DNA of 32,000 nt from Sinorhizobium meliloti (GTDB taxonomy: Bacteria; Pseudomonadota; Alphaproteobacteria; Rhizobiales; Rhizobiaceae): positions 870,001-902,000 of the forward strand of contig NZ_JAGIOS010000002.1 in NCBI RefSeq assembly GCF_017876815.1, read 5' to 3'. How positions within the stretch are numbered: position 1 is the first letter of the stretch; each line of letters begins with the position of its first letter. The notes under the pieces were generated by a model. That model was not told the DNA's origin. It saw nothing but the letters and a program-made list of their open reading frames with translations, and did no database searches. Shown here one piece after another: positions 21,912 to 31,875 of the stretch. The translations under genes and the position numbers were made by a program.

Positions 21912-23729
21912 ATGCCGAACACTTCCGACATCCTCATCGACACGCTTATCGAATGGAAGGTCGATGTCGTCTTCGGCCTGCCCGGAGACGGCATCAACGG
22001 CATCATGGAGGCGCTCAGGAGGCGGCAGGATCGCATCCGGTTCGTTTCCGTGCGCCACGAGCAATCGGCCGCCTTCATGGCATGCGCCTATGCCAAATTC
22101 ACCGGCAGACTTGGCGTCTGCCTCGCCACATCGGGCCCGGGCGGCACAAATCTGCTGACCGGCCTCTACGATGCGAAGCTGGACCAGATGCCGGTGCTCG
22201 CGATCACCGGCATGCAGTATCACGACCTGATCGAGACGTTCTCACAGCAGGACGTCGATCTCACCCGCGTCTTCGAAAACGTCGCCGTCTACAACGCGCA
22301 GGTGAACGACGCAGCCCACATGGAAAACCTCGCAAACCTTGCCTGCCGGTCGGCGCTCTCCAAGCGCGGCGTGGCGCATCTTTCGATCGCCAACGACGTG
22401 CAGGAGCGGATGGCAGATGGCGGGCGGTCCCGCCGCAACCGGCCGGGGCACATGCCAAGCCGGTATTTCGCCGGCAAGCTCGTGCCCCTCGAAAGCGATC
22501 TTTCGAGAGCGGCGGATCTCCTGAATGCGGGCAGGAAGGTGGCAATTCTTGCGGGGCGCGGCGCACTCGAGGCGAAGGAGGCTCTGCGCGAGACGGCGGA
22601 ACTGCTGGGCGCGCCGGTGGCGAAGGCTCTTCTCGGCAAGGCGGTGCTGCCCGACGACGACCCGCTGACCACCGGCGGCATCGGCATACTCGGCACCGCG
22701 CCGTCGCAGGAGATCATGCAGCAATGCGACACGCTGCTCATCATCGGCTCGACCTTCCCCTATATCGAATATTATCCCAGGCCGAACACGGCAGCCGGAA
22801 TCCAGATCGACCATGACCCGCAGCGCATCGGTCTGCGCTACCCCGTCGAGGTCGGGCTGGTCGGCGAGGCAGGCGAGACCCTCCGCATGCTCAACAAGCG
22901 GCTCAAACGCAAGCAGGACAGGTCGTTCCTCGAGCGGGCGCAAGAGCAGACGCGAAACTGGCGCCGGGAGCTGCGGGCGATGGAAGGCGACAGGAGTTCT
23001 CCCCTGAAACCGCAGGCGGCGGTCGCGGCTTTCGGCCGGCGCATCGCGAAGAAGGGTATCGTCGTCACCGACTCCGGACAGAACACCGAGCTTGCGGCCC
23101 GTCATCTCGATCTCGGTGCGGACCACATGTTCGCGGTCTCCGGCGCCCTCGCCTCGATGGCCTCGGGCCTGCCCTATGCTATCGCGGCGGGCATCGCGAT
23201 GCCGGACCGCCCGGTCTATGCGGTCGTCGGCGACGGCGGCTTCGCGATGCAGCTCGGCGAATTTGCGACAGCCGTCGGATACCGGCTTCCTTTGAAGCTC
23301 CTGGTGATCCGAAACGACATGCTGAACCAGATCGCCTGGGAGCAGATGATGTTTCTCGGCAATCCGCAATTCGCCTGCGAATTGCCGCCGATCGATTTCG
23401 CCGCCGCGGCGGAGGCCATGGGCGGCCGGGGCTTCACCGTCCGGTCCTTCGGCGAACTGGACGGGATCATGGATCAGGCCTTCGCCGTGGATGGGCCGGT
23501 GGTCATCCAGGCGCTGGTCGACCGCTACGAGCCGCTGATGCCGCCGAAAATGCCGGCGGACTACGCCCGGAACTTCCGTGCCGCGCTTCCGGAAACGCCG
23601 GGGCACGAGAAGATCGAGGAAATCCTCAGGAATTCCTCCGTCGGCAGGAAGGTAACCGACGAGGAGCCGCAGCCGCCGCATGAGGCGGCGCCGGACGAGA
23701 ACACCGGCGAATTGCCGGGAATTCCGTAG
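21912..23729 (+). CDS. Thiamine-pyrophosphate enzyme, pyruvate oxidase / pyruvate dehydrogenase (quinone) PoxB-like
   Basis: N-terminal GLPGDGINGIMEAL and ATSGPGGTNLLTGL. TPP-binding VVGDGGFAMQLGEF...LKLLVIRNDMLN. GGAGGAGGGG RBS. An acidic and Pro-rich C-terminal tail is present. Confidence 0.85.
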   Translation: MPNTSDILIDTLIEWKVDVVFGLPGDGINGIMEALRRRQDRIRFVSVRHEQSAAFMACAYAKFTGRLGVCLATSGPGGTNLLTGLYDAKLDQMPVLAITGMQYHDLIETFSQQDVDLTRVFENVAVYNAQVNDAAHMENLANLACRSALSKRGVAHLSIANDVQERMADGGRSRRNRPGHMPSRYFAGKLVPLESDLSRAADLLNAGRKVAILAGRGALEAKEALRETAELLGAPVAKALLGKAVLPDDDPLTTGGIGILGTAPSQEIMQQCDTLLIIGSTFPYIEYYPRPNTAAGIQIDHDPQRIGLRYPVEVGLVGEAGETLRMLNKRLKRKQDRSFLERAQEQTRNWRRELRAMEGDRSSPLKPQAAVAAFGRRIAKKGIVVTDSGQNTELAARHLDLGADHMFAVSGALASMASGLPYAIAAGIAMPDRPVYAVVGDGGFAMQLGEFATAVGYRLPLKLLVIRNDMLNQIAWEQMMFLGNPQFACELPPIDFAAAAEAMGGRGFTVRSFGELDGIMDQAFAVDGPVVIQALVDRYEPLMPPKMPADYARNFRAALPETPGHEKIEEILRNSSVGRKVTDEEPQPPHEAAPDENTGELPGIP

Positions 23730-23747: not shown

Positions 23748-23772
23748 GGAACAAAGCATGCCTTCTTCGGTT
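23748..23772 (+). promoter_or_regulatory. EcfG/RpoE2-type promoter motif (GGAAC-N16-gGTT) for the ASRT-family / lactone-oxidase pair
   Basis: GGAAC at 23748-23752 and GGTT at 23769-23772. It lies 34 nt upstream of the ATG at 23806. Confidence 0.6.
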
Positions 23773-23805
23773 CGAACCGGAAGTATGGGCTTCGAGGACC
23801 CGAGA

Positions 23806-24198
23806 ATGACGCATGCTATAGGCAGCAGGCGATGGGCAATCGCCGACGGCTACATCCCTTCTTCGAGCGCGAGCGACGATCCCGCGCTCGTCTCCCCAGC
23901 GCTCGTCTCCCATGAAAGCGCCTGCATCCTGAATACCGGTGACACGCCGGCCAAGGTCGAGATCATGCTGTTCTTTTCCGACCGGGAGCCCGCAGGTCCG
24001 TACCGTGTAACCGTCGCGGCCCGCCGGACGGTCCACCTGCGTTTCAACGATCTCGACGATCCGGAGCGCGTGCCGCGGGACACGCCCTATGCCTCGCTGA
24101 TCGAATCCGACACGCCGATCGTCGTGCAGCAGACGCGGCTCGATTCCCGGCAACCGCCCCACGCTCTCTTGAGCACAATCGCCTATTGCCAGGAGTAG
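23806..24198 (+). CDS. Sensory-rhodopsin-transducer (ASRT) family protein, copy 1 (130 aa)
   Basis: MTHAIGSRRWAIADGYIP...SHESACILNTGDTPAKVEIMLFFSDREPAGPYRVTVAARRTVHLRFNDL...IVVQQTRLDSRQ matches my memory of the ASRT family core. GAGGA RBS lies 7 nt upstream. It parallels the start of its paralogue at 25550. Confidence 0.7.
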   Translation: MTHAIGSRRWAIADGYIPSSSASDDPALVSPALVSHESACILNTGDTPAKVEIMLFFSDREPAGPYRVTVAARRTVHLRFNDLDDPERVPRDTPYASLIESDTPIVVQQTRLDSRQPPHALLSTIAYCQE

Positions 24199-24199
24199 C

Positions 24200-25429
24200 A
24201 TGCCGAACACACCGTGGAGTGCTACCTCTCAGAACCTCGGCCAGGATTTTCACAACTGGTCGGGCGGCCTGCGCTTTCGTCCGTCGCGTCTGGATGTGCC
24301 GGAAGACGAGGAAACCGTGGCGGCGCTCGTGCGCGCAGCCGCGCGGCAGGGCCGCAGCATACGGCCGGTCGGCTCGGCCCATTCGTCGAGCGAGATTTAC
24401 GTGACCGACGACATCCTGGTCTCCATGGCCGGCATCTGCGGCTTACGCGAGCATGATGCGCAACACCACCGCGCCACGGTCGGCGCCGGCTCGCAGCTGA
24501 CCGAGCTCAGCAAGGAGCTGCAGGCAGCCGGCATGACGCTCTCAAACTTCGGCGACGTGGCCACCCAGACCGTCGGCGGTGCGATCGGAACCGGAACGCA
24601 TGGGTCCGGACGGGATTTCCCCAACCTGTCGATGATGCTCGTGGGCGGCCGCCTGGTCACCGCCGGGGGTGAGATAAGGACGTTCGACGTGGAAGAGGAG
24701 CCGGATTTCGTGCGGGCCCTGCGCGTCTCCTTCGGGACGCTCGGCATTCTCACCTGGACCACTCTGAAGCTCGAGCCGCTGCACGATCTGCACCGCCAGG
24801 AATGGTGCCTTGCCTTCGAGCCATGCATGGAGGTGCTCGATAAGCTCTCCCGCGAAAACCGGAACTTCGATTTCTACTGGTATCCCCGCTCCGACGAGGT
24901 GAAGATCCGTTGCCTCAACCCGCCCGGCGAGGAGAAGGATTACGGCGCCTTCGCACGGCTGGCAAAGGACGAAACCGGCCCGCCGCACGAGGTCATTCCC
25001 CAGCACAGCGACCTTCCGCATCGTTTCGAGGAGATGGAATATTCCATGCCCGCCGAAGCGGGGCCGGAATGCCTCGGAAAGCTGCGCGCGCGGATCAAGG
25101 AAAGATGGCGCCGCTCCGTCGGCTGGCGTCTGCTTTTTCGCTACATCAAGGCCGACGACAGCTGGCTCAGCGAGGCGTATGGGCGGAATTCCGTGAGCAT
25201 ATCGCTTCATCAAAATGCGACGCTCCCCTATTGGGACTTCTTTCTCGACCTCGAACCGATCATGCGCGATCACGGCGGGCGGCCGCATTGGGCGAAGAAG
25301 CACAGCCTTCGCGCAGCCGAGCTCAGACCCCTTTACCCGATGTGGGATCGTTTTCTCGCGGTCCGACAGGAAATGGATCCGGGCGGACGGTTTCTCACGC
25401 CGTATCTGCGCGGGCTTTTCGGGTGCTAG
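24200..25429 (+). CDS. FAD-linked oxidase of the D-arabinono-1,4-lactone / L-gulonolactone oxidase (ALO/GULO) family
   Basis: PCMH FAD-binding part: IRPVGSAHSSS and GGAIGTGTHGSG. The C-terminal ALO domain carries GGRPHWAKKH (the HWAK motif). The ATG at 24200 lies 1 nt after the upstream TAG. Confidence 0.8.
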   Translation: MPNTPWSATSQNLGQDFHNWSGGLRFRPSRLDVPEDEETVAALVRAAARQGRSIRPVGSAHSSSEIYVTDDILVSMAGICGLREHDAQHHRATVGAGSQLTELSKELQAAGMTLSNFGDVATQTVGGAIGTGTHGSGRDFPNLSMMLVGGRLVTAGGEIRTFDVEEEPDFVRALRVSFGTLGILTWTTLKLEPLHDLHRQEWCLAFEPCMEVLDKLSRENRNFDFYWYPRSDEVKIRCLNPPGEEKDYGAFARLAKDETGPPHEVIPQHSDLPHRFEEMEYSMPAEAGPECLGKLRARIKERWRRSVGWRLLFRYIKADDSWLSEAYGRNSVSISLHQNATLPYWDFFLDLEPIMRDHGGRPHWAKKHSLRAAELRPLYPMWDRFLAVRQEMDPGGRFLTPYLRGLFGC

Positions 25430-25486
25430 AGCGGGATGAGGAAAAGTGTGCGCGGTTTTCCGCCCGCATCCCGCTCTAATTTTTTG
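25428..25486 (+). terminator. Compound hairpin plus T-tract. It is a terminator-like or REP-like palindromic element after the oxidase gene.
   Basis: AGAGCGGGATG (25428-25438) and CATCCCGCTCT (25467-25477) are exact reverse complements. An inner GGAAAA/TTTTCC stem is present. AATTTTTT follows. Confidence 0.55.
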
Positions 25487-25501
25487 GAATCGATCACGTT
25501 C

Positions 25502-25531
25502 ATGTTTTTAGGTCGACCCGACTAAAAACAT
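25502..25531. promoter_or_regulatory. AT-rich 10-bp inverted repeat ATGTTTTTAG-N10-CTAAAAACAT, a candidate operator upstream of ASRT copy 2
   Basis: The arms are exact reverse complements. The repeat lies 19-48 nt upstream of the ATG at 25550 and is the most AT-rich patch of this intergenic region. Confidence 0.4.
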
Positions 25532-25549
25532 CGTGGTCTAGGAGGGCGC

Positions 25550-25945
25550 ATGCAGGCGATCGGCAAGAGGCGATGGACGATAGCCGGGGGGCGCATTCCC
25601 CTTGAAAGCAACGGCACGGAACCCGAATTCACGAGCCGGGACGAGATCGCGGTGCTCAACTGTTGCGACAGCCCGGCCAGGCTGCGCATTCATATCCATT
25701 ATGCGGATCGTCCGGCTGTCGGACCTTATGAGGTGGAGGTCGCCGCGAGGCGGGTCCGCCGCATCCGCTTCAACGACCTGATCTTTCCCGAGGCGCTGCC
25801 GCTGGACGAGGATTTCGGCGCAGTCATCGACGCGGATATTCCCGTGGTCGTGCAATTTACCCGCCTCGACAGCGGCACAGCATCGCGCAGCGCGGTGGCG
25901 ACCGCGGCCTATGCGGAGCGGAACCTTCAAGGGAGCGGACGATGA
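25550..25945 (+). CDS. Sensory-rhodopsin-transducer (ASRT) family protein, copy 2 (131 aa)
   Basis: MQAIGKRRWTIAGGRIP...RDEIAVLNCCDSPARLRIHIHYADRPAVGPYEVEVAARRVRRIRFNDL...VVVQFTRLDSG aligns by eye along its full length with 23806..24198. AGGAGGG RBS. The stop overlaps the next start as ATGA. Confidence 0.7.
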   Translation: MQAIGKRRWTIAGGRIPLESNGTEPEFTSRDEIAVLNCCDSPARLRIHIHYADRPAVGPYEVEVAARRVRRIRFNDLIFPEALPLDEDFGAVIDADIPVVVQFTRLDSGTASRSAVATAAYAERNLQGSGR

Positions 25946-27576
25946 AAGAGGCGCCGTGGTTCTCGAGCTCGGTCATCTATGGAATCGACGTGCGCAGATT
26001 TTCGGACGGAAATGGCGACGGGATCGGCGACTTCATAGGTCTCAAGGAGCGCGTGTCTTATCTGCACTATCTGGGCATCGACTGTGTCTGGCTCTCGCCC
26101 TTCTTCAGGTCCCCCTTTGCCGATAACGGCTACGACGTCAGCGACTATTATTCCATCGATCCGGTTCTCGGAACGCTGGACGACTTCCTGGATTTCCTGC
26201 ACGCCGCCGGCGAACAGGGCATTCGCGTCGTCGTCGATCTCGTCGCCAACCACACATCCAGCGAGCATCCGTGGTTCCAGGCGGCGCGGCGCGACGCGAG
26301 GTGCCGCTTCCGCGACTATTACGTCTGGTCGGAAAGCCCGCCGCCGGTCGCTCCGGACAACAAGACGGCGTTTCCCGGCGAGGAAAGCAGTGTCTGGACC
26401 TATGACGATCTCGCCCAGGCCTATTACTTCCACAAGTTCCGCCATTTCCAGCCGGACCTGAACATCGCCAACCCGGCGGTGCGAGACGAATTGCTTCGTG
26501 TAGTCGACTATTGGCTGACATTGGGCGTCGACGGATTCCGGGTGGATGCCGCGCCATTCGTAATCGGCGAAACCGGCATAGAGCACGCGGACCCCAGGGA
26601 CCCCCAGGGCTTTCTCAGGGAAATGCGCAAGCTGGTCGACGGGAGGCGCCAGGACGGCCTTCTGCTCGGCGAAGCGGACCTGGCGCCGGAAAAGCTGCGG
26701 TCCTATTTCGGCGACGGAAAGCTCGACCTTCTGTTCAACTTCGTGTTGTGTGCGGCTTTCGCCGCGAGCCTCGCGGGGCAGAAGGCCGACCCCATCGGCC
26801 AGGCGCTTTCGATCATGCCAGAGCCGCCTCCCCATCGCGGCTGGGCGAACTTCCTTCGCAATCTCGACGAACTGAACCTCGATCGCCTGCCGGAAGACAT
26901 TCGAGAGGAAACCTTTGCGGCCTTCGCCCCGGATGAGGAGATGCGGATCTACGGACGCGGCATCAGGCGCCGCCTTGCGCCGATGCTGGACGGAAACCGG
27001 GCGAGAATAGAACTCGCCTTCAGTCTGCTTCTGTCTTCCCCGGGCGTGCCGCTCATTCTCTACGGCGACGAGATCGGCCTTGGCGAGGACCTTTCCCGAC
27101 CGGGCCGGGAGCCGGTCCGCGTGCCCATGCAGTGGAATACGGGTTCCAATGCCGGCTTCTCCACCGCCCAGCGCGCCAAACTCGTCCAGCCGCCGGTGAC
27201 AGACGGCCCATTCTCCTTCAAGCGGGTCAATGTCGAAGCTCAGCGTGAGGACCCGGGGTCGCTTCTGAACCGCGTGCGGGCGATGATCCTGGCGCGGCGC
27301 CGGCACGAGCTCTTCAACAGGGGACGCCCGGTCATGCTGCACACCGGAGACCCGGCGCTGTTCGCGCTGGCCTATTCCGACGGCACCGAACTATTCGTGG
27401 TGCTGCACAATCTTTCGGACGGCAAGCGGCGGGCGGAGCTCGAACTGCCCGGCGCAATCGACGCCAGGCTCAATGACATTCTCGGCGAGGGTGAGGTCGA
27501 GCTTTCCGGGCAGCGTCTGGCGATAGGGCTCGGTCCGTTCGGCTACGTCTGGCTTCATTCGGGAAAGAAGGATTGA
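25942..27576 (+). CDS. GH13 alpha-amylase-family protein, trehalose synthase (TreS)-like
   Basis: DGNGDGIGDFIGL; region I VVDLVANHTS; region II GVDGFRVDAAP; region III LLGEADLAPEKLRSYFGDG (TreS-like). Region IV reads FLRNLDEL rather than the usual FLRNHDEL. Confidence 0.8.
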   Translation: MKEAPWFSSSVIYGIDVRRFSDGNGDGIGDFIGLKERVSYLHYLGIDCVWLSPFFRSPFADNGYDVSDYYSIDPVLGTLDDFLDFLHAAGEQGIRVVVDLVANHTSSEHPWFQAARRDARCRFRDYYVWSESPPPVAPDNKTAFPGEESSVWTYDDLAQAYYFHKFRHFQPDLNIANPAVRDELLRVVDYWLTLGVDGFRVDAAPFVIGETGIEHADPRDPQGFLREMRKLVDGRRQDGLLLGEADLAPEKLRSYFGDGKLDLLFNFVLCAAFAASLAGQKADPIGQALSIMPEPPPHRGWANFLRNLDELNLDRLPEDIREETFAAFAPDEEMRIYGRGIRRRLAPMLDGNRARIELAFSLLLSSPGVPLILYGDEIGLGEDLSRPGREPVRVPMQWNTGSNAGFSTAQRAKLVQPPVTDGPFSFKRVNVEAQREDPGSLLNRVRAMILARRRHELFNRGRPVMLHTGDPALFALAYSDGTELFVVLHNLSDGKRRAELELPGAIDARLNDILGEGEVELSGQRLAIGLGPFGYVWLHSGKKD

Positions 27577-27577
27577 G

Positions 27578-28564
27578 ATGGCGAGCATCGGCTATCACGC
27601 ATCGCACGAGCAGTTCACCCCGCTCGACCTGTTGAACTGGGCGCGGGCGGCGGAAGAGGCCGGGTTCGATTGCACCATGTCCTCCGACCATCTGGCGCCC
27701 TGGAGCGAACGCCAGGGGCAAAGCGGCTTTGCCTGGGCCTGGCTGGGTGCCGCCCTCCAGGCAACTGAGCGGAAGTTCGGCCTCGTCACGGTTCCCTGCG
27801 GCTGGCGCTATCACCCGGTGATAACGGCCCAGGCCGCCGCAACCCTTGCCCAGATGTTTCCGCGGCGCCTTGCCTGGCTTGCGCTCGGCACGGGCGAGGC
27901 ACTGAACGAACACGTCGTCGGCGGTGCCTGGCCCGGAAAGGCGGAACGAAACGCCAGGCTGCGCGAGGCGGTCGACGTCATCCGCGAGCTTTTTGCCGGC
28001 CGGACGGTGACGAGGGACGCGCCCATTGCCGTCTCCGAGGCCCGGCTTTATACGCTTCCCGAAACTCCGCCTGCGCTGATCGCAGCGGCTTTGACGCCCG
28101 AAACGGCGGAAGGTGCCGGCGAATGGGCCGACGGCCTCATCACCGTCAATCAGTCGCCGGAAAAGCTCGCGGCGATCGCCCAGGCCTTCAAGCGCGGCGG
28201 CGGCGACGGCAAGCCGCTCTGTCTTCAGGTCCATGTGTCCTATGCCCGAAGCGACGAGGAGGCGCGGCGGAACGCCTTCGACCAGTGGCGGAGCAATGCG
28301 CTCAGCGCCTTTCAGTCGGAAACCCTGAGGACGCCGGGCGACATAGAAACCGCGACGAGCGGTGTCCGCCCGGAGGACCTCGACGCCTATGTCCGCATTT
28401 CTTCCGATCCGGGGCGGCACCTCGCCTGGATCGAAGAGGATATCGCGGCAGGCTTCGACGAGATCTACCTCCACAATGTCGGGCGCAATCAGCTCGAATT
28501 CATCGGCGTCTTCGGGCGCACGGTGCTGCCGCGCGTGCGCGCTTCCCGACCGGCAACCGAGTAA
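27578..28564 (+). CDS. Luciferase-like monooxygenase (LLM) class oxidoreductase of the F420-dependent glucose-6-phosphate dehydrogenase-related branch (probable non-F420 flavinoid type)
   Basis: MASIGYHASHEQFTPLDLL...GFDCTMSSDHLAPWSERQGQSGFAWAWLGAALQAT...RYHPVITAQAAATLAQMFPRRLAWLALGTGEALNEH follows the FGD-like family pattern. The ATG lies 1 nt after the GH13 stop. Confidence 0.75.
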   Translation: MASIGYHASHEQFTPLDLLNWARAAEEAGFDCTMSSDHLAPWSERQGQSGFAWAWLGAALQATERKFGLVTVPCGWRYHPVITAQAAATLAQMFPRRLAWLALGTGEALNEHVVGGAWPGKAERNARLREAVDVIRELFAGRTVTRDAPIAVSEARLYTLPETPPALIAAALTPETAEGAGEWADGLITVNQSPEKLAAIAQAFKRGGGDGKPLCLQVHVSYARSDEEARRNAFDQWRSNALSAFQSETLRTPGDIETATSGVRPEDLDAYVRISSDPGRHLAWIEEDIAAGFDEIYLHNVGRNQLEFIGVFGRTVLPRVRASRPATE

Positions 28565-28656
28565 GTTGACGACAGCAGTCTAGCCGGTTTTCCACCTTGA
28601 CGTCTGATGCATTATGTTCCCCCAATGCCGGCAGGATCGGGCGGGAGGGGTGCGGC

Positions 28657-29904
28657 TTGTACGACTATTGCATCATCGGAGGCGGCATCGTCGGTCTTGC
28701 GACCGCTATGGCGCTGCAGGAAAGGATGGGCGGCGCCAGGATCGTGCTTCTGGAAAAGGAGCGGGAGCTTGCGCGGCATCAGACGGGCCACAACAGCGGT
28801 GTGATCCATGCCGGGATTTACTATGCACCGGGATCCCTGAAAGCGAAGCTGTGCCGCGAGGGAGCGGAGGCCACGAAAGAATTCTGCACCGGGAACGGCA
28901 TATCGTTCGAAACCTGCGGCAAATTGCTGGTCGCGACGAACGATGCCGAGATCGAGCGCATGGAGAGCCTGGAAGAAAGAGCGCAGCAGAATGGGATCGA
29001 ATACACTCGCCTGTCGAAGTCGCAACTGCGATCGGACGAGCCTAACATCGCCGGCCTCGGTGCGCTTCTCGTCCATGCGACGGGGATCGTCGATTATTCG
29101 GCCGTTTGCCGGGCGATGGCCGAGCGCATCGAAGTCCGGGGCGGCGAAATCCGGTGCGGGGTCGAGGCCACTGCCATTGCCGAAGAGGATGGCGGCGTGC
29201 GGATCGCAAGTGCAACCGGCCGCATCGAAGCGCGCAGGCTGATCGCCTGCGCCGGCCTGCAGTCCGACCGCATCGCGCTCATGGCCGGCCTCAGCATCGA
29301 CCACCGCATCGTTCCGTTCCGGGGCGAATATTACGTGTTGCCGGCATCGAAGGCCGGTATGACCAGGCGCCTCATCTACCCCATTCCCGACCCGGACCTG
29401 CCTTTCCTCGGAATTCACCTGACCCGGACGATCGACGGAGGCATGACCGTCGGCCCCAATGCGGTGCTGGGCTTTGCCCGCGAGGGCTACCCGAAGGGCA
29501 GCTTCAAAGCGGCCGATGTGGCGAACATGGCGGCGTTTCCCGGCTTCTGGAAAATGGCGGCGAAGAACTGGCGTTCGGCGATCACGGAATTCGCCAATTC
29601 GGCATCGCGGTTCCGCTATCTGCGGGAGTGCCGGAAATACTGCCCGTCGCTCACGATAGACGACCTCGCAGTCCCGCAGGCCGGCATCCGGGCGCAGGCG
29701 GTCATGGCCGACGGCAGCCTCGTCCACGACTTTCTCTTCAAACAGACCGAAAGGATGCTCCACGTCTGCAACGCGCCGTCGCCGGCTGCGACCTCGGCAA
29801 TTCCGATCGGCCGCATGATCGTCGATCGCCTGCTCGACGGGGCTCCTCCCGCGACGGAACGATCACAATCGCTTCATGGGACTCATGCGCAACTTCATCG
29901 GTAG
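28657..29904 (+). CDS. lhgO: L-2-hydroxyglutarate oxidase/dehydrogenase
   Basis: YDYCIIGGGIVGLATA (FAD), HQTGHNSGVIHAGIYYAPGSLKAKLC, PFRGEYY, IYPIPDPDLPFLGIHLTRTIDGGMTVGPNAVLGFAREGY and CNAPSPAATSAIPIG closely track E. coli LhgO (YgaF). The probable start is TTG at 28657, 6 nt after GGGAGGGG. The track start at 28597 is another TTG. Confidence 0.9.
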   Translation: MYDYCIIGGGIVGLATAMALQERMGGARIVLLEKERELARHQTGHNSGVIHAGIYYAPGSLKAKLCREGAEATKEFCTGNGISFETCGKLLVATNDAEIERMESLEERAQQNGIEYTRLSKSQLRSDEPNIAGLGALLVHATGIVDYSAVCRAMAERIEVRGGEIRCGVEATAIAEEDGGVRIASATGRIEARRLIACAGLQSDRIALMAGLSIDHRIVPFRGEYYVLPASKAGMTRRLIYPIPDPDLPFLGIHLTRTIDGGMTVGPNAVLGFAREGYPKGSFKAADVANMAAFPGFWKMAAKNWRSAITEFANSASRFRYLRECRKYCPSLTIDDLAVPQAGIRAQAVMADGSLVHDFLFKQTERMLHVCNAPSPAATSAIPIGRMIVDRLLDGAPPATERSQSLHGTHAQLHR

Positions 29905-29991
29905 TGCATCGAGCCGCCGCTTCCTTTACTTTCGCCCCTGCCATGCGCACACTCTGCCGGAGGAGCAAGCGCGGTCCGTTGGGAGGCGGTG

Positions 29992-31875
29992 ATGGTTTCA
30001 CATTCCGAGCACATCCGCGAAATCGAACGCGTCAGCCGTGGTCTTCCCGTGCGCCGCGACGAGACGGTCGTGAAATCGTGGCTGCGCTGCCTGGAGCATC
30101 ACCGGCTCGATCCGGCGCAGAGTTGTGAAGCCTATATCGTTCCGGAAACGCGACTTAGGGAACACCGCCAACAATCGGAGGATCTGATCGCCATCGCCCG
30201 TTCGGGGCTCGAAAACCTGTTCCGCCAGGTGGCGGGGCAGAACTACGTGCTGCTGCTTTCCGACCGCGAAGGCGTGACGGTCGAGTTCCTCGGCGATCCC
30301 CTCTTCGGCAACAGCCTGCGCAAGGCGGGGCTCTATTTGGGTTCGGAGTGGTCCGAGTGGCGCGCCGGGACCTGTGCGGTGGGCGCGTGCCTGGAAACGG
30401 GAGAGGCGCTGACGATCCACCAGACCGACCACTTCGACAACACCCACACGCCGCTCTCCTGCACGGCCGCGCCGATCTACGACATCCAGGGCGAACTCTC
30501 CGCCGTGCTCGACATCTCGCTTCTGAGTTCGCCGATCCTCAAGGCGAGCCAGAACCTGGCACTGCACCTGGTGAGCGCGACCGTAAGGCGCATCGAGCTT
30601 GCCAATCTCATGGCGCAAGCGCGTAATCAATGGGTCCTGCGATTCTCGCGCTCACCCGAATTCCTCGACGTCGATCCGGAGGCGGCGATCTCGATCGACG
30701 GTCTCGGCCGCATCGCCGGCATGACGCATGCGGGAGCGAAAATCCTTGCGCGTTCGACAGGCCTCGACTGGCGCGATCCGCAGCAACTGATCGGCGAGCC
30801 GGTGTCGCGCTTCTTCGACATCGAGGTCGACAATCTTTCCGACCTTACCCGCCGGCGCCCGACCCGGGAGCGGCTCGTCTTCGCGCGGGATGGAAACGCG
30901 CTCTTCGCCCATGCGATCGAGCCGCACTCGAAGGTCCGCGCACCGCTCGTTTCGCGCGAGCAAATTCCACCGGCCTTGCGGCGGCTCGGCGGCGACGCGC
31001 CCGTGATCGCGGCGCTGCAGGCAAAGGCGGCAAAGCTTGCGCGGACGCGATTGCCGATCCTCATTCAGGGCGAGACCGGAACGGGCAAGGAACATCTCGC
31101 GCGGGCCATCCACGAGGGCAGCGGTCTCGAGGGCCCGTTCGTCGCCATCAATTGTGCGGCAATCCCGGAGCAGCTGATCGAAAGCGAGCTTTTCGGCTAC
31201 TTGCCGGGAGCTTTCACCGGCGCTTCGGCAAAGGGTCGCAAGGGCCTGATCGAGCAGGCGGACGGCGGAACGCTCTTCCTCGACGAAATCGGCGACATGC
31301 CGCTTGCCCTGCAAAGCCGGCTGTTGCGCGTGCTTGCCGAGGGCGAGGTGCTGCCGGTCGGCGGGACGGCACCGCGGAAGGTTCGGATCCGGATCGTGTC
31401 GGCATCGCACCGGCCCCTGCAGACGCTCGTCTCGCAAGGAGCATTCCGCGAGGACCTCTATTACCGGCTCAATGCCGCGACGCTCACCCTTCCGGCGCTC
31501 CGGGACAGGCCGGACTTCGACTGGGTTCTGGAGCAACTCCTGAAGCGGCACGGCGATGGCGAATTGATATTGTCCCCGGCCGCGCTTTCTGCGCTCAAGG
31601 CCCACGATTGGCCGGGAAACATCCGCGAGCTCGACAACGTCATCGGGGTCGCCGCGGCACTTGCCGAGAACGGCGTCGTGGAGCTCGGCGACCTGCCGGA
31701 CCAACTCCTGGCGAATGCGGACACTGTCGGCGGAAACGAGGCGAGCGCGACCTTGAGCCTGACGCTGACCGCTTGCAACTGGAACATTTCCGAGGCTGCC
31801 CGCCGGCTGGGGCTCGATCGCTCGACGGTGCACCGGCAGATCAAGCGCTACCGCCTCAAACCGCACCGCCATTGA
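29992..31875 (+). CDS. Sigma-54-dependent transcriptional activator, AcoR-like (GAF-type sensor, AAA+ domain, Fis HTH)
   Basis: Walker A GETGTGKE, GAFTGA loop (LPGAFTGAS), Walker B LFLDEIGD, and C-terminal HTH NISEAARRLGLDRSTVHRQIKRY. The N-terminal ~300 aa resemble the AcoR sensor region. GGGAGG RBS lies 5 nt before the ATG at 29992. Confidence 0.9.
   Translation: MVSHSEHIREIERVSRGLPVRRDETVVKSWLRCLEHHRLDPAQSCEAYIVPETRLREHRQQSEDLIAIARSGLENLFRQVAGQNYVLLLSDREGVTVEFLGDPLFGNSLRKAGLYLGSEWSEWRAGTCAVGACLETGEALTIHQTDHFDNTHTPLSCTAAPIYDIQGELSAVLDISLLSSPILKASQNLALHLVSATVRRIELANLMAQARNQWVLRFSRSPEFLDVDPEAAISIDGLGRIAGMTHAGAKILARSTGLDWRDPQQLIGEPVSRFFDIEVDNLSDLTRRRPTRERLVFARDGNALFAHAIEPHSKVRAPLVSREQIPPALRRLGGDAPVIAALQAKAAKLARTRLPILIQGETGTGKEHLARAIHEGSGLEGPFVAINCAAIPEQLIESELFGYLPGAFTGASAKGRKGLIEQADGGTLFLDEIGDMPLALQSRLLRVLAEGEVLPVGGTAPRKVRIRIVSASHRPLQTLVSQGAFREDLYYRLNAATLTLPALRDRPDFDWVLEQLLKRHGDGELILSPAALSALKAHDWPGNIRELDNVIGVAAALAENGVVELGDLPDQLLANADTVGGNEASATLSLTLTACNWNISEAARRLGLDRSTVHRQIKRYRLKPHRH

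Follow-up and report, generated by a model that had tools for sequence, protein, structure and literature searches.

Single-domain ASRT (Anabaena sensory rhodopsin transducer) proteins that occur without a rhodopsin and adjoin carbohydrate enzymes were described in 2009 by De Souza, Iyer and Aravind as stand-alone ASRT/ASRAH proteins (PMC2739507). From gene neighbourhoods, these authors proposed that they bind and sense sugars and regulate the adjoining enzymes through protein-protein contacts, so that, contrary to the initial annotation, a function for ASRT beyond rhodopsin signalling had already been put forward. The cited partners include a Sinorhizobium amylase and pyruvate oxidase, a dehydratase/racemase and a glycolate-oxidase-like FAD enzyme, and the conserved pocket residues (signature SHEshChhN) touch a small-molecule ligand in TM1070 (PMC2739507). 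Experiments on Anabaena ASRT reportedly concern DNA binding and looping (PMC8660804) and not sugar or enzyme binding.

The locus analysed here lies on the pSymB megaplasmid of Sinorhizobium meliloti SM11, in a window of 32,000 nt (the whole stretch of DNA analysed), and comprises the five genes SMb20096-SMb20100. Like the stand-alone systems, it encodes single-domain ASRT proteins next to carbohydrate enzymes and, as noted previously, no rhodopsin gene is annotated anywhere in the window. It differs from the Anabaena system in its sugar oxidoreductase partners and in the presence of two ASRT paralogues rather than one. Neither a second subfamily without the His and Cys of the pocket, nor a near-obligate pairing with an ALO-type oxidase, nor a recurrent link to a TIGR03885 LLM oxidoreductase, all found here, is described in PMC2739507.

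Gene order, junctions and an inserted repeat

The features of the locus are as follows.

21912..23729, + strand: pyruvate-oxidase-like TPP enzyme (SMb20095); three TPP_enzyme Pfam domains
23748..23772, + strand: RpoE2/EcfG-type promoter motif GGAAC-N16-GGTT, identified from sequence
23806..24198, + strand: ASRT type A (SMb20096, ASRT copy 1); Pfam ASRT, 4.8e-51, 172 bits
24200..25429, + strand: ALO/GULO-type FAD oxidase (SMb20097); Pfam FAD_binding_4 and ALO, TIGR01679
25430..25541, no strand assigned: RIME/MITE-like two-hairpin repeated element, 112 bp; supported by relatives without the insertion, plasmid copies and fold
25550..25945, + strand: ASRT type B (SMb20098, ASRT copy 2); Pfam ASRT, 2.4e-44, 150 bits
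25942..27576, + strand: TreS-like GH13 (SMb20099); Pfam Alpha-amylase, 8e-81
27578..28564, + strand: TIGR03885 FMN-dependent LLM oxidoreductase (SMb20100); Pfam Bac_luciferase, 3.8e-36

Pfam and NCBIfam profile matches agree on the five genes and their families as first proposed, including membership of both ~130-aa proteins in the ASRT family. The longest ORF of SMb20096 begins at 23680; its start was placed at M43 (23806), in agreement with the beginning of the Pfam match and of every homologue. SMb20095, which precedes ASRT type A, gives its best NCBIfam matches to PRK08273 and pyruvate oxidase models, both under cutoff. This gene is outside the ALO/ASRT-B core and is a recurrent type-A ASRT neighbour in other genomes, 17 of 55 full-context loci having a TPP homologue no more than 6.5 kb from type-A ASRT.

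Three of the four junctions, read directly as TAGcATG, ATGA and TGAgATG, represent the 1-nt gaps or ATGA overlaps originally reported for the whole cluster, but the oxidase and ASRT copy 2 are separated by 120 nt (25430-25549). Most of this gap is occupied by the 112-bp element, which is flanked by CTAG and separates the stop codon of the oxidase from the ribosome-binding site of ASRT2. The element folds into two strong hairpins (-50.6 kcal/mol, z -3.7), the first of which is followed by a U-run and is thus terminator-like; it is present in ~30 copies per pSymB, and a search of 247 rhizobial plasmids located it at 2724 places. S. psoraleae (L002), Ensifer (L003) and a further relative (L086) lack the element, the corresponding sequence being ...GCTAGGAGGGTGCATG, and the oxidase-ASRT2 gap in close relatives is ~8 nt. 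The insertion is specific to S. meliloti, and it accounts for the separation of ASRT2 from the oxidase.

A type B ASRT subfamily and its oxidase partner

ASRT1 carries the canonical type A pocket signature (SHESACILN, conforming to SHEshChhN), matches Anabaena ASRT (2II7) over its full length with 153 bits and shares 62-81% identity with homologues from many phyla. A 5-aa duplication in this protein (PALVS x2, nt 23881-23910) is polymorphic between strains. ASRT1 and ASRT2 are 43% identical, and the signature of the latter, SRDEIAVLN, exhibits replacement of His by Arg, Glu by Asp and Cys by Ala. Subfamily alignment revealed WxIxGG and VVQF as further type B hallmarks, and type-B proteins mostly form one clade in a neighbour-joining tree. 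Judged by these sequence features, ASRT copy 2 belongs to a separate subfamily, type B, whose pocket residues are altered; both this membership and the location of the subfamily directly 3' of an ALO-type oxidase gene seem to be novel.

In 48 of 50 evaluable loci, the gene directly preceding type-B ASRT is an ALO gene, at a spacing of 10-35 nt or with overlap in nearly every one, whereas GH13 was immediately downstream in 6 of 51. In the reciprocal comparison, a B-like ASRT was located directly 3' of the oxidase in all five loci seeded with oxidase orthologues (50-53% identity), which represent five phyla (Desulfocurvibacter, Kallotenue, a Pirellulaceae MAG, a Haloarculaceae archaeon and a Nitrospirota MAG). 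The ALO/ASRT-B pairing thus spans bacteria and archaea, and the conserved partner of type B is the oxidase and not the GH13, with which ASRT copy 2 had been paired at the outset; the ASRT2/GH13 overlap is a local feature.

The remaining genes are recurrent yet optional members. Among the 17 loci flanked by 5 kb or more on either side, ALO was present in 17, type-A ASRT in 10, GH13 in 8 and LLM in 8, with ALO, GH13 and LLM together in 7. The five oxidase-seeded loci contained LLM in three, GH13 in one and GH15/TREH_N in two (a weak fragment in one of these). When 39 loci of 5 kb or more were clustered without use of annotation, ALO was recovered in 32, ASRT in 31, LLM in 13 and GH13 in 10, and no other family in more than four. 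Since GH13 and LLM are missing from about half or more of the ALO/ASRT-B loci, neither represents an obligatory step. The expectation that the genes co-occur elsewhere was nevertheless borne out, as all five families were found together in six further loci, i.e. in Vulcaniibacterium (L037), Pseudoxanthomonas (L083) and the metagenome loci L088, L114, L123 and L125. Type-B peptide patterns served as seeds for the metagenome loci, many of which are short; L084, L085 and L093 are near-duplicates. Recurrence of the same families together in distant lineages indicates that their clustering is not due to chance.

Predicted enzyme activities and role of the ASRT proteins

SMb20099 is similar over its full length to trehalose synthases of the TreS GH13_16 type (D. 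radiodurans 4TVU, mycobacterial 3ZO9/4LXF; 400-451 bits, compared with 243 bits for the best alpha-glucosidase) and shares their nucleophile, acid/base and third Asp motifs (catalytic Asp/Glu/Asp). In contrast to these enzymes, it scores 533 with the NCBIfam TreS model TIGR02456 (cutoff 678), has neither a Pep2 maltokinase fusion nor a GlgE context, and carries Leu308 (nt 26863-26865; NLD vs NHD) in place of the region IV His. This replacement is a feature of the Sinorhizobium lineage, in which TreS activity may consequently be altered. Genetic work on treS reportedly exists. SMb20099 has been named treS and handled as a stand-alone trehalose gene (PMC4960864).

SMb20100 is a member of TIGR03885 (507, cutoff 399), FMN-dependent by its NCBI name, and falls below the cutoff of the FGD model (160 bits vs 420). 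Its closest solved structure is 9HAV (303 bits), which is undescribed. With the F420-dependent FGD1 (3B4Y, 150 bits) it has in common the LLM TIM-barrel fold and equivalents of the catalytic residues His40, Trp44 and Glu109; the catalytic His and Trp are invariant. The initial assignment to the FGD-related branch therefore holds as kinship and not as subfamily. Lys198, Lys259 and Arg283 of FGD1, which we take to form its phosphate pocket, correspond to Ser, Ser and Tyr in SMb20100, and a sugar phosphate is accordingly an unlikely substrate.

With GULO, yeast ALO1, plant GLDH, M. tuberculosis Rv1771 and Streptomyces alditol oxidase, SMb20097 shares the FAD_binding_4 and ALO domains, the HWAK motif (residue 363) and the covalent-flavin His (His61). 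Gly118 occupies the oxygen-gatekeeper position and is of the oxidase type, aligning with the A113G variant position; Ala113 of GLDH presumably serves as the gatekeeper there. No ASRT-type partner is known to be required by, or encoded with, any of these characterised enzymes. Because alditol oxidases also belong to the ALO family, the substrate need not be a lactone, and SMb20097 could be an alditol or polyol oxidase of the AldO/xylitol-oxidase type, in a module turning over a polyol or compatible solute and yielding no ascorbate-like lactone. In line with this, it exceeds the cutoff only for the generic bacterial model (TIGR01679 bact_FAD_ox of NCBIfam, 332 vs cutoff 292), fails the sugar-1,4-lactone-oxidase model TIGR01678 (189 bits vs 397), and matches xylitol oxidase 2VFR nearly as well as galactonolactone dehydrogenase 8QNC (113 and 136 bits, respectively). 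However, the recurrent LLM is a relative of an enzyme forming the C1 lactone of glucose-6-phosphate, trehalose-active glycosidases yield glucose and not polyols, and no polyol transporter or dehydrogenase was recurrent in the annotation-free clustering of loci, rendering a polyol oxidase rather unlikely.

The best overall explanation, which we hold with moderate confidence, is a conserved sugar-oxidising module with the ALO oxidase and a dedicated ASRT-B as its core, accompanied by ASRT, LLM and glycosidase companions. Its evolutionary core is the ALO/GULO-type covalent-flavin oxidase followed by the diverged type B, usually with a canonical type A 5' of the oxidase, and the optional, recurrent companions are the TIGR03885 LLM and a trehalose-active glycosidase (TreS-like GH13 here, sometimes a GH15 trehalase-like enzyme in other loci). 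The glycosidase may free or interconvert glucose units of a stress-accumulated trehalose/maltose pool, after which the LLM would perform an FGD-like oxidation of a non-phosphorylated sugar; with O2, the oxidase would then act on the sugar lactone so formed or on a similar polyol. Both ASRT proteins are envisaged as small sugar- or lactone-binding subunits on the oxidase, gating or feeding it; since ASRT is a tetramer with pocket walls contributed by the dimer interface, a mixed A/B oligomer is possible. The protein association, the substrates and the product are predictions; the putative route from trehalose to an ascorbate-like lactone is chemically coherent and in keeping with the recurrent gene set.

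As the full-length match to 2II7 implies that ASRT1 should share the activity of Anabaena ASRT, for which DNA binding and looping are reported (PMC8660804), the ASRT proteins might instead be DNA-binding transcriptional regulators of adjacent operons. This appears distinctly unlikely, given that the tight couplings (the 1-nt gap, the ATGA overlaps and the ALO/ASRT-B spacing) are more suggestive of stoichiometric partners, two paralogues around one enzyme would be unusual for a regulator, no DNA-binding motif is evident and the conserved pocket residues are in contact with a small-molecule ligand in TM1070.

Alternatively, the ASRT proteins could themselves be small enzymes, i.e. aldose mutarotases or delta- to gamma-lactone isomerases preparing the dehydrogenase or oxidase substrate, with type B non-catalytic or of different specificity. 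For a protein of 125 aa, conservation is extreme, with 62-73% identity between proteobacteria, actinobacteria, planctomycetes and chloroflexi and with 34 alignment columns invariant, His, Arg and Asp among them. The pocket is lined by the His-Glu-Cys signature (PMC2739507), and in many loci type A adjoins genes for glucose-oxidising enzymes, its neighbours including Zn-ADH glucose dehydrogenase (17 loci), enolase-superfamily dehydratase (20), GH15 (27) and OtsA (17). Yet no activity has ever been reported, the argument being one of conservation and context, and the pocket residues are not kept in type B, which makes an enzymatic role very unlikely.

Mere adjacency, with SMb20099 as one of three trehalose-synthesis routes and the rest as stress-island passengers, would agree with the stand-alone treatment of treS and with the many ALO/ASRT-B loci without GH13 and LLM, but is disfavoured as highly improbable because the four families, and no further one, recur in varied order and orientation in gammaproteobacteria, planctomycetes and unclassified metagenome lineages.

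The RpoE2 setting

RpoE2 (EcfG) of S. meliloti governs trehalose synthesis and desiccation resistance (PMC2918589), and the sugar-oxidising module is set in a general-stress (RpoE2) gene island of pSymB. The motif at 23748, 34 nt 5' of the ASRT1 start codon, has GGTT and not CGTT as its -10 element; its layout is that of RNA-seq-mapped RpoE2 promoters nearby, e.g. SMb20085 (GGAACTT-N13-CGGTTG). Of the three close relatives compared, two (L003 and L086) retain it with unchanged spacing, within a spacer that has otherwise diverged. In the supplementary tables examined, no mapped TSS was found for SMb20096. In published arrays, RpoE2 overexpression induced SMb20093-97, including SMb20096/97 (Lang 2018, Data Set S1) and SMb20095 (log2FC 0.90), and SMb20097 was among the rpoE2-dependent genes (value 3.13; Schlueter 2013), in agreement with the EcfG-type control initially suggested.

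Control of all five genes as one stress-driven unit, also suggested then, did not fare as well. SMb20098-100 do not appear in the published RpoE2-induced array lists, which is negative evidence only, and a terminator-like hairpin lies between the oxidase and ASRT2; the five genes are therefore probably not one stress operon in this S. meliloti strain. The repeat split an ancestral tight operon: the RpoE2 promoter at 23748 drives ASRT-A and the oxidase, and for ASRT-B, GH13 and LLM the insertion may entail attenuation or separate control. In other phyla, catalase, Usp and Nramp genes adjoin the module. Several neighbouring motifs in the window coincide with mapped RpoE2 promoters.

Gene content and protein families of the SMb20096–SMb20100 cluster

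The 5.1-kb region encompassing the cluster shares 100% identity with pSymB of S. meliloti SM11 and >98% identity with dozens of S. meliloti pSymB replicons. ORF calling, combined with Pfam and NCBIfam searches, recovered the five ORFs and the protein families proposed in the initial annotation. In the GenBank record of an identical copy, these genes are named, in order, sensory rhodopsin transducer, D-arabinono-1,4-lactone oxidase, sensory rhodopsin transducer, alpha-amylase family protein and TIGR03885 family FMN-dependent LLM (luciferase-like) class oxidoreductase. SMb20099 is designated treS in strain 1021 (PMC4960864), and published array tables list SMb20096 and SMb20098 as conserved hypotheticals and SMb20097 as an oxidoreductase, preceded by SMb20094 (phospholipase D) and SMb20095 ('acetolactate synthase') and followed by SMb20101 (L-2-hydroxyglutarate dehydrogenase) and SMb20102 (acoR). 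A literature search returned no main-text mention of SMb20096, SMb20097, SMb20098 or SMb20100. The start of ASRT1 (SMb20096; Anabaena sensory rhodopsin transducer family) was assigned to position 23806 (MTHAIG...), rather than to the upstream ATG opening the longest ORF, because the Pfam match and all homologues begin at 23806.

All gene junctions had been described as 1-nt gaps or ATGA overlaps. Three tight junctions were observed, while the oxidase gene and ASRT2 (SMb20098) are separated by a 120-nt gap that had been overlooked; the original observation was thus largely right, with one junction wrong, and its interpretation was in part supported and in part published before.

Tight junctions (read directly from the sequence) and repeated element of the cluster
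24196-24202, + strand: tight junction between ASRT1 and the oxidase gene, TAGcATG
25430-25541: CTAG-flanked, RIME/MITE-like repeated element of 112 bp with two hairpins, single copy within the window
25942-25945, + strand: tight junction between ASRT2 and the GH13 gene, ATGA
27574-27580, + strand: tight junction between the GH13 and LLM genes, TGAgATG

Both proteins of about 130 aa were confirmed as ASRT family members by matches to Pfam PF07100 that span all 119 profile positions (172.2 bits for ASRT1 and 150.5 bits for ASRT2; gathering score, 25). Among solved ASRT β-sandwich structures, ASRT1 matched 2II7 at 153 bits and 1NC7 at 77 bits, with corresponding values of 116 and 40 bits for ASRT2. 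The function of ASRT has been debated ever since it was named as a rhodopsin transducer, most family members being found in organisms without rhodopsin. As had been noted, no rhodopsin was found among the annotated genes across the window or among the Pfam matches of neighbouring ORFs, in contrast to the Anabaena ASR–ASRT photosensory system, where a sensory rhodopsin is co-encoded. De Souza, Iyer and Aravind (2009) reported that stand-alone ASRT proteins mostly occur without rhodopsin and beside sugar-metabolism genes, including amylases in Sinorhizobium, pyruvate decarboxylase/oxidase, dehydratase/racemase and a glycolate-oxidase-like FAD enzyme. They postulated that the His and Cys of the signature SHEshChhN line a pocket that binds sugar, and that neighbouring enzymes are regulated via protein contacts. 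The sugar-binding or enzyme-partner role put forward in the initial annotation is the same idea, and this central inference is therefore a rediscovery. The signature reads SHESACILN in ASRT1 and SRDEIAVLN in ASRT2. In a literature search linking 'sensory rhodopsin transducer' with 'lactone oxidase', the ASRT term appeared in none of the matches listed. ASRT1 furthermore carries an imperfect 15-bp tandem duplication at 23881-23910 (CCCGCGCTCGTCTCC / CCAGCGCTCGTCTCC), giving it a second PALVS directly before the pocket strand; this is absent from all aligned relatives and apparently missing in many S. meliloti strains (match span of 5086 versus 5101 nt).

The SMb20097 protein was shown to contain FAD_binding_4 (PF01565, 2e-28) and ALO (PF04030, 3.1e-42) domains and passed the bacterial model TIGR01679 (332.5 against a cutoff of 292.25), upholding its assignment as an ALO/GULO-type FAD oxidase, but failed the curated sugar-1,4-lactone-oxidase model TIGR01678 (189 bits against 396.8). 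With this combination, the enzyme may act on either lactones or alditols, and an alditol oxidase constitutes a rival to the lactone oxidase reading; among solved structures, the protein scored highest against L-galactono-1,4-lactone dehydrogenase (136 bits), followed by xylitol oxidase (113 bits). Residues with assigned roles in aldonolactone oxidoreductases include a His for covalent FAD attachment, a small gatekeeper residue in the oxidase type and an HWxK motif. In SMb20097, His61 (in VGSAHS) occupies the covalent-flavin position, HWAK is present at residue 363, and Gly118 aligned with the position substituted in the '8QNC A113G variant' (wild type Ala). Gatekeeper work attributed to Leferink reportedly links a small residue of this kind to reactivity with O2, and Gly118 therefore predicts O2 reactivity for the oxidase.

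The LLM protein (SMb20100) passed TIGR03885 (FMN-dependent by its NCBI name; 506.9 against 398.7) and the broader TIGR03557, but failed the curated FGD model TIGR03554 (160.3 bits against 420), so that it falls within TIGR03885 and outside FGD proper. The phosphate pocket of FGD1, in work of 2008 attributed to Bashiri, reportedly consists of Lys198, Lys259 and Arg283. The equivalent residues are Ser, Ser and Tyr in the window LLM and variable in 23 cluster-linked LLMs, among which the His40 and Trp44 equivalents are invariant and that of Glu109 is Glu or Gln. Since the pocket equivalents are not kept, a non-phosphorylated substrate would be more likely than glucose-6-phosphate. Among solved structures, 9HAV ('Luciferase family protein') comes closest, at 303 bits; unlike the window LLM, it has kept Lys and Arg in two of the pocket's three positions; 9HAV, 9HAW, 9HAX and 9HAY together comprise 54 chains in four entries. 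Literature searches found no paper describing PDB 9HAV and none mentioning TIGR03885.

The best PDB matches of the GH13 protein (SMb20099) are by far trehalose synthases (full-length scores of 400-451 bits, while the best alpha-glucosidase reached 243 bits), in keeping with a TreS-like enzyme, but the protein fell below the cutoff of the curated TreS model TIGR02456 (533.5 bits against 678.35). The catalytic Asp, Glu and Asp are present, as are the conserved regions DLVANHT, GFRVDA and LLGEAD; region IV reads FLRNLDE rather than the FLRNHDE of D. radiodurans TreS, replacing His by Leu308 (nt 26863-26865). Based on this substitution, the 'trehalose synthase' of the literature may have an altered activity or specificity. 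NLDE is shared with close Sinorhizobium relatives and two other loci; it was rejected as a hallmark of cluster-linked GH13 proteins, as 14/19 TreS-like neighbours keep NHD.

Genomic neighbourhoods of the two ASRT types

Loci were collected using peptide patterns drawn from each ASRT subfamily, and partners were detected by tblastn with the window proteins at fixed thresholds; many of the metagenome contigs are short, and L084, L085 and L093 are near-duplicates. Close relatives of ASRT1 (type A; 62-81% identity) were surveyed in 80 genome loci (L002-L081) from many phyla. With the window proteins as probes, the full gene set was shown to recur in S. psoraleae, Ensifer sp. and the gammaproteobacterium Vulcaniibacterium thermophilum, bearing out the expectation that these families co-occur in other genomes. 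In the 55 loci flanked by at least 5 kb on each side, partners comprised ALO (3), TreS-like GH13 (5), LLM (4) and a pyruvate-oxidase-like TPP enzyme (17). Annotation-free clustering followed by Pfam analysis of all 80 loci identified GH15 with a trehalase N-domain (27), TPP enzyme (23), SDR (20), enolase-superfamily dehydratase (20), a ~1000-aa FAD-oxidase_C/Fer4/CCG enzyme (18), Zn-ADH-type glucose dehydrogenase (17), OtsA (GT20; 17), GH13 (12), GT4 (12), a GDE/MGH1-like hydrolase (11) and LLM (9), which indicates that type A generally accompanies gene sets for trehalose and glucose oxidation. This neighbour set, with D-lactate-dehydrogenase-like FAD/Fe-S enzymes, resembles a route from trehalose via glucose, gluconate and 2-keto-3-deoxygluconate to pyruvate.

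ASRT2 displays 43% identity to ASRT1 and at most 62% identity to its relatives outside Sinorhizobium. Subfamily alignment revealed the hallmarks of a type B, namely W-x-I-x-G-G (versus WAIAEGY), EPEFTS-R/x-D (versus PALVSHE), VVQF (versus VVQH) and loss of the pocket Cys, with the loss of SHEshChhN in ASRT2 being common to the whole subfamily. Type B was surveyed by tblastn in three genome contexts and, with type-B patterns as seeds, in 80 metagenome loci, and types were assigned by alignment-column classification, a stricter regular expression having caught only 28 genes. Among the 50 type-B genes preceded by at least 700 nt of sequence, 48 have an ALO-type oxidase gene on the same strand that ends no more than 250 nt upstream. 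In a neighbour-joining tree, 53 of the 63 ASRT genes directly downstream of an ALO gene (the type-B position) group in one clade, whose 10 other tips include sequences located a few hundred bases from a contig end, with the upstream gene out of view. Conversely, GH13 is encoded immediately downstream of only 6/51 type-B genes; the suggested partnership of ASRT2 with GH13 thus retains its ATGA overlap here, but the recurrent neighbour is the upstream oxidase.

The reverse comparison sampled five oxidase orthologues (50-53% identity) from Desulfocurvibacter africanus, Kallotenue papyrolyticum, a Pirellulaceae MAG, a Haloarculaceae archaeon and a Nitrospirota MAG. In all five, a B-like ASRT gene overlaps the oxidase gene or lies within 35 nt downstream of it, and the archaeal locus contains an ASRT-ALO-ASRT triad. 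Further genes at these loci encode LLM (3), GH15/TREH_N (2, of which that in the Nitrospirota locus is a weak match on an 83-residue fragment only), Nramp (2), GH13 (1), catalase (1) and ThuA with a GFO/ThuB-like dehydrogenase (1). The Nramp (Mn/Fe transporter) genes lie directly 3' of ASRT-B in Desulfocurvibacter (L167), where the catalase gene is nearby, and in the Nitrospirota MAG (L171), while the ThuA and GFO/ThuB-like genes adjoining the Pirellulaceae module (L169) belong to the 3-keto-trehalose pathway.

The 17 type-B loci flanked by at least 5 kb on each side encode ALO (17), type-A ASRT (10), TreS-like GH13 (8) and LLM (8), with ALO, GH13 and LLM together in seven. Annotation-free clustering of 39 loci (at least 5 kb) returned only four families in more than four loci, i.e. 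ALO (32), ASRT (31; 39 genes), LLM (13) and GH13 (10). The order and orientation of GH13 and LLM genes vary by lineage, which argues for selection on co-location rather than common ancestry of one arrangement, and coincidental adjacency of the genes is unlikely given the recurrence across phyla. The type-B subfamily seems to be new, as do its near-obligate link with an ALO-type oxidase in both bacteria and archaea, the recurrent ALO/ASRT/LLM/trehalose-glycosidase module and the repeat insertion splitting the S. meliloti operon.

The TPP enzyme and canonical ASRT represent a second conserved ASRT pairing, beside that with the oxidase. This enzyme is encoded at 21912-23729 of the window, and its family often directly adjoins canonical ASRT in unrelated phyla (e.g. 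L009, L011, L013, L015, L019, L028, L047, L050, L054, L063 and L065).

Repeat insertion and proposed RpoE2 control

In S. psoraleae (L002), Ensifer sp. (L003) and a metagenomic relative with 88% identity (L086), the oxidase stop codon abuts the ribosome-binding site of ASRT2 (...GCTAGGAGGGTGCATG). Compared with these, SM11 contains an extra 112 bp at the same site with CTAG on either side, and the 120-nt gap is the product of a recent insertion. The ancestral state was therefore a gapless five-gene operon, with S. meliloti harbouring a terminator-like element in mid-operon. The element resembles the RIME class of rhizobial intergenic mosaic elements. Each pSymB holds ~30 copies of it, and it was located at 2724 places across 247 plasmids of Sinorhizobium, Ensifer and Rhizobium. 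It was predicted to fold into two long hairpins (-50.6 kcal/mol, z = -3.7), with UAAUUUUUU directly after the first. An Rfam search of the window, including the element, identified no known RNA family, and a generic sigma-70/terminator scan yielded nothing useful across the cluster, the long-loop hairpin not being picked up.

The EcfG-type motif reported at 23748 was verified as GGAAC-N16-GGTT, and both GGAAC and GGTT are kept at equal spacing in L003 and L086 despite a diverged surrounding spacer. This site was missed by a search with a strict CGTT -10 element and recovered with a relaxed GTT. The window contains 17 GGAAC-N15-18-GTT sites (spanning 1959-23772) against 2.25 expected, a number reached in 0/100 shuffles, and those at 1959(-), 2015(+), 13103(+) and 14028(-) correspond to RNA-seq-mapped promoters of RpoE2, the EcfG-type general stress sigma factor, for SMb20073, 74, 83 and 85 (Schlueter 2013, Table S19). 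This enrichment and the four matches indicate that the window is an RpoE2 island. The general-stress genes of the window encode a general stress protein, PepSY, DUF1328, a ferritin-like protein, PIMT and phospholipase D.

Upon RpoE2 overexpression, log2 changes of 1.25, 2.47, 0.90, 0.87 and 1.31 were reported for SMb20093, SMb20094, SMb20095, SMb20096 and SMb20097, respectively, whereas SMb20098 is listed only in a strain contrast and SMb20099 and SMb20100 are absent (Lang 2018, Data Set S1). SMb20097 was also found to be rpoE2-dependent (value 3.13), without a mapped TSS (Schlueter 2013), and none was found for the SMb20096/97 promoter in the published tables searched. The proposed stress control of the cluster is supported by the motif and by the reported induction of SMb20096 and SMb20097, to which the published evidence is confined, SMb20098-SMb20100 being unlisted as RpoE2-induced in the published arrays. 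These data would fit transcription from 23748 largely ending at the inserted hairpin, although little weight can be placed on genes not being listed. In S. meliloti, RpoE2 also controls trehalose synthesis and resistance to desiccation (PMC2918589).

Candidate role of the module

The best-supported reading is that the cluster represents a conserved sugar-oxidation module, with the ALO-type oxidase and a dedicated ASRT-B as its invariant core, usually preceded by a generic ASRT-A, and with the LLM and a trehalose-active glycosidase as frequent additions; in Sinorhizobium, this module sits within the general stress regulon. A chemically coherent route can be envisaged in which glucose would be released from trehalose or maltose, converted by the LLM to gluconolactone, and the lactone oxidized by the oxidase to a 2-keto/enediol lactone such as erythorbate with release of H2O2. 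The ASRT pair would most plausibly act as sugar- or lactone-binding subunits gating or feeding the oxidase. Alternatively, ASRT may be a small enzyme, e.g. a mutarotase or lactone isomerase, or a DNA-binding regulator, for which there is an experimental claim for Anabaena ASRT.

It is considerably less probable, and in our view doubtful, that the ALO-oxidase/ASRT-B pair, ASRT-A, the TIGR03885 LLM and a trehalose-cleaving glycosidase constitute a widespread, so far unrecognised prokaryotic pathway which, under stress, converts trehalose-derived glucose via gluconolactone to an ascorbate-like enediol lactone (e.g. erythorbate), with ASRTs as catalytic or substrate-channelling subunits. Such a pathway would at last provide a biochemical function for the ASRT family, and production of this lactone from the trehalose pool would represent a new stress-protection route in bacteria and archaea, with a bearing on desiccation survival of rhizobial inoculants. 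If no such lactone is made, the local picture is still corrected to an ancestral five-gene operon that a mobile repeat has split in S. meliloti, with published evidence of RpoE2 control for its first two genes only. The near-obligate pairing of one ASRT subfamily with one enzyme offers a concrete, testable ASRT partner.

The region following the cluster (28597-31875) encodes an L-2-hydroxyglutarate oxidase (lhgO; annotated start 28657) and an AcoR-like sigma-54 activator with a GAF domain. These two genes are linked to the cluster only in close Sinorhizobium relatives (L086) and not in distant loci, and they therefore probably lie outside the module.
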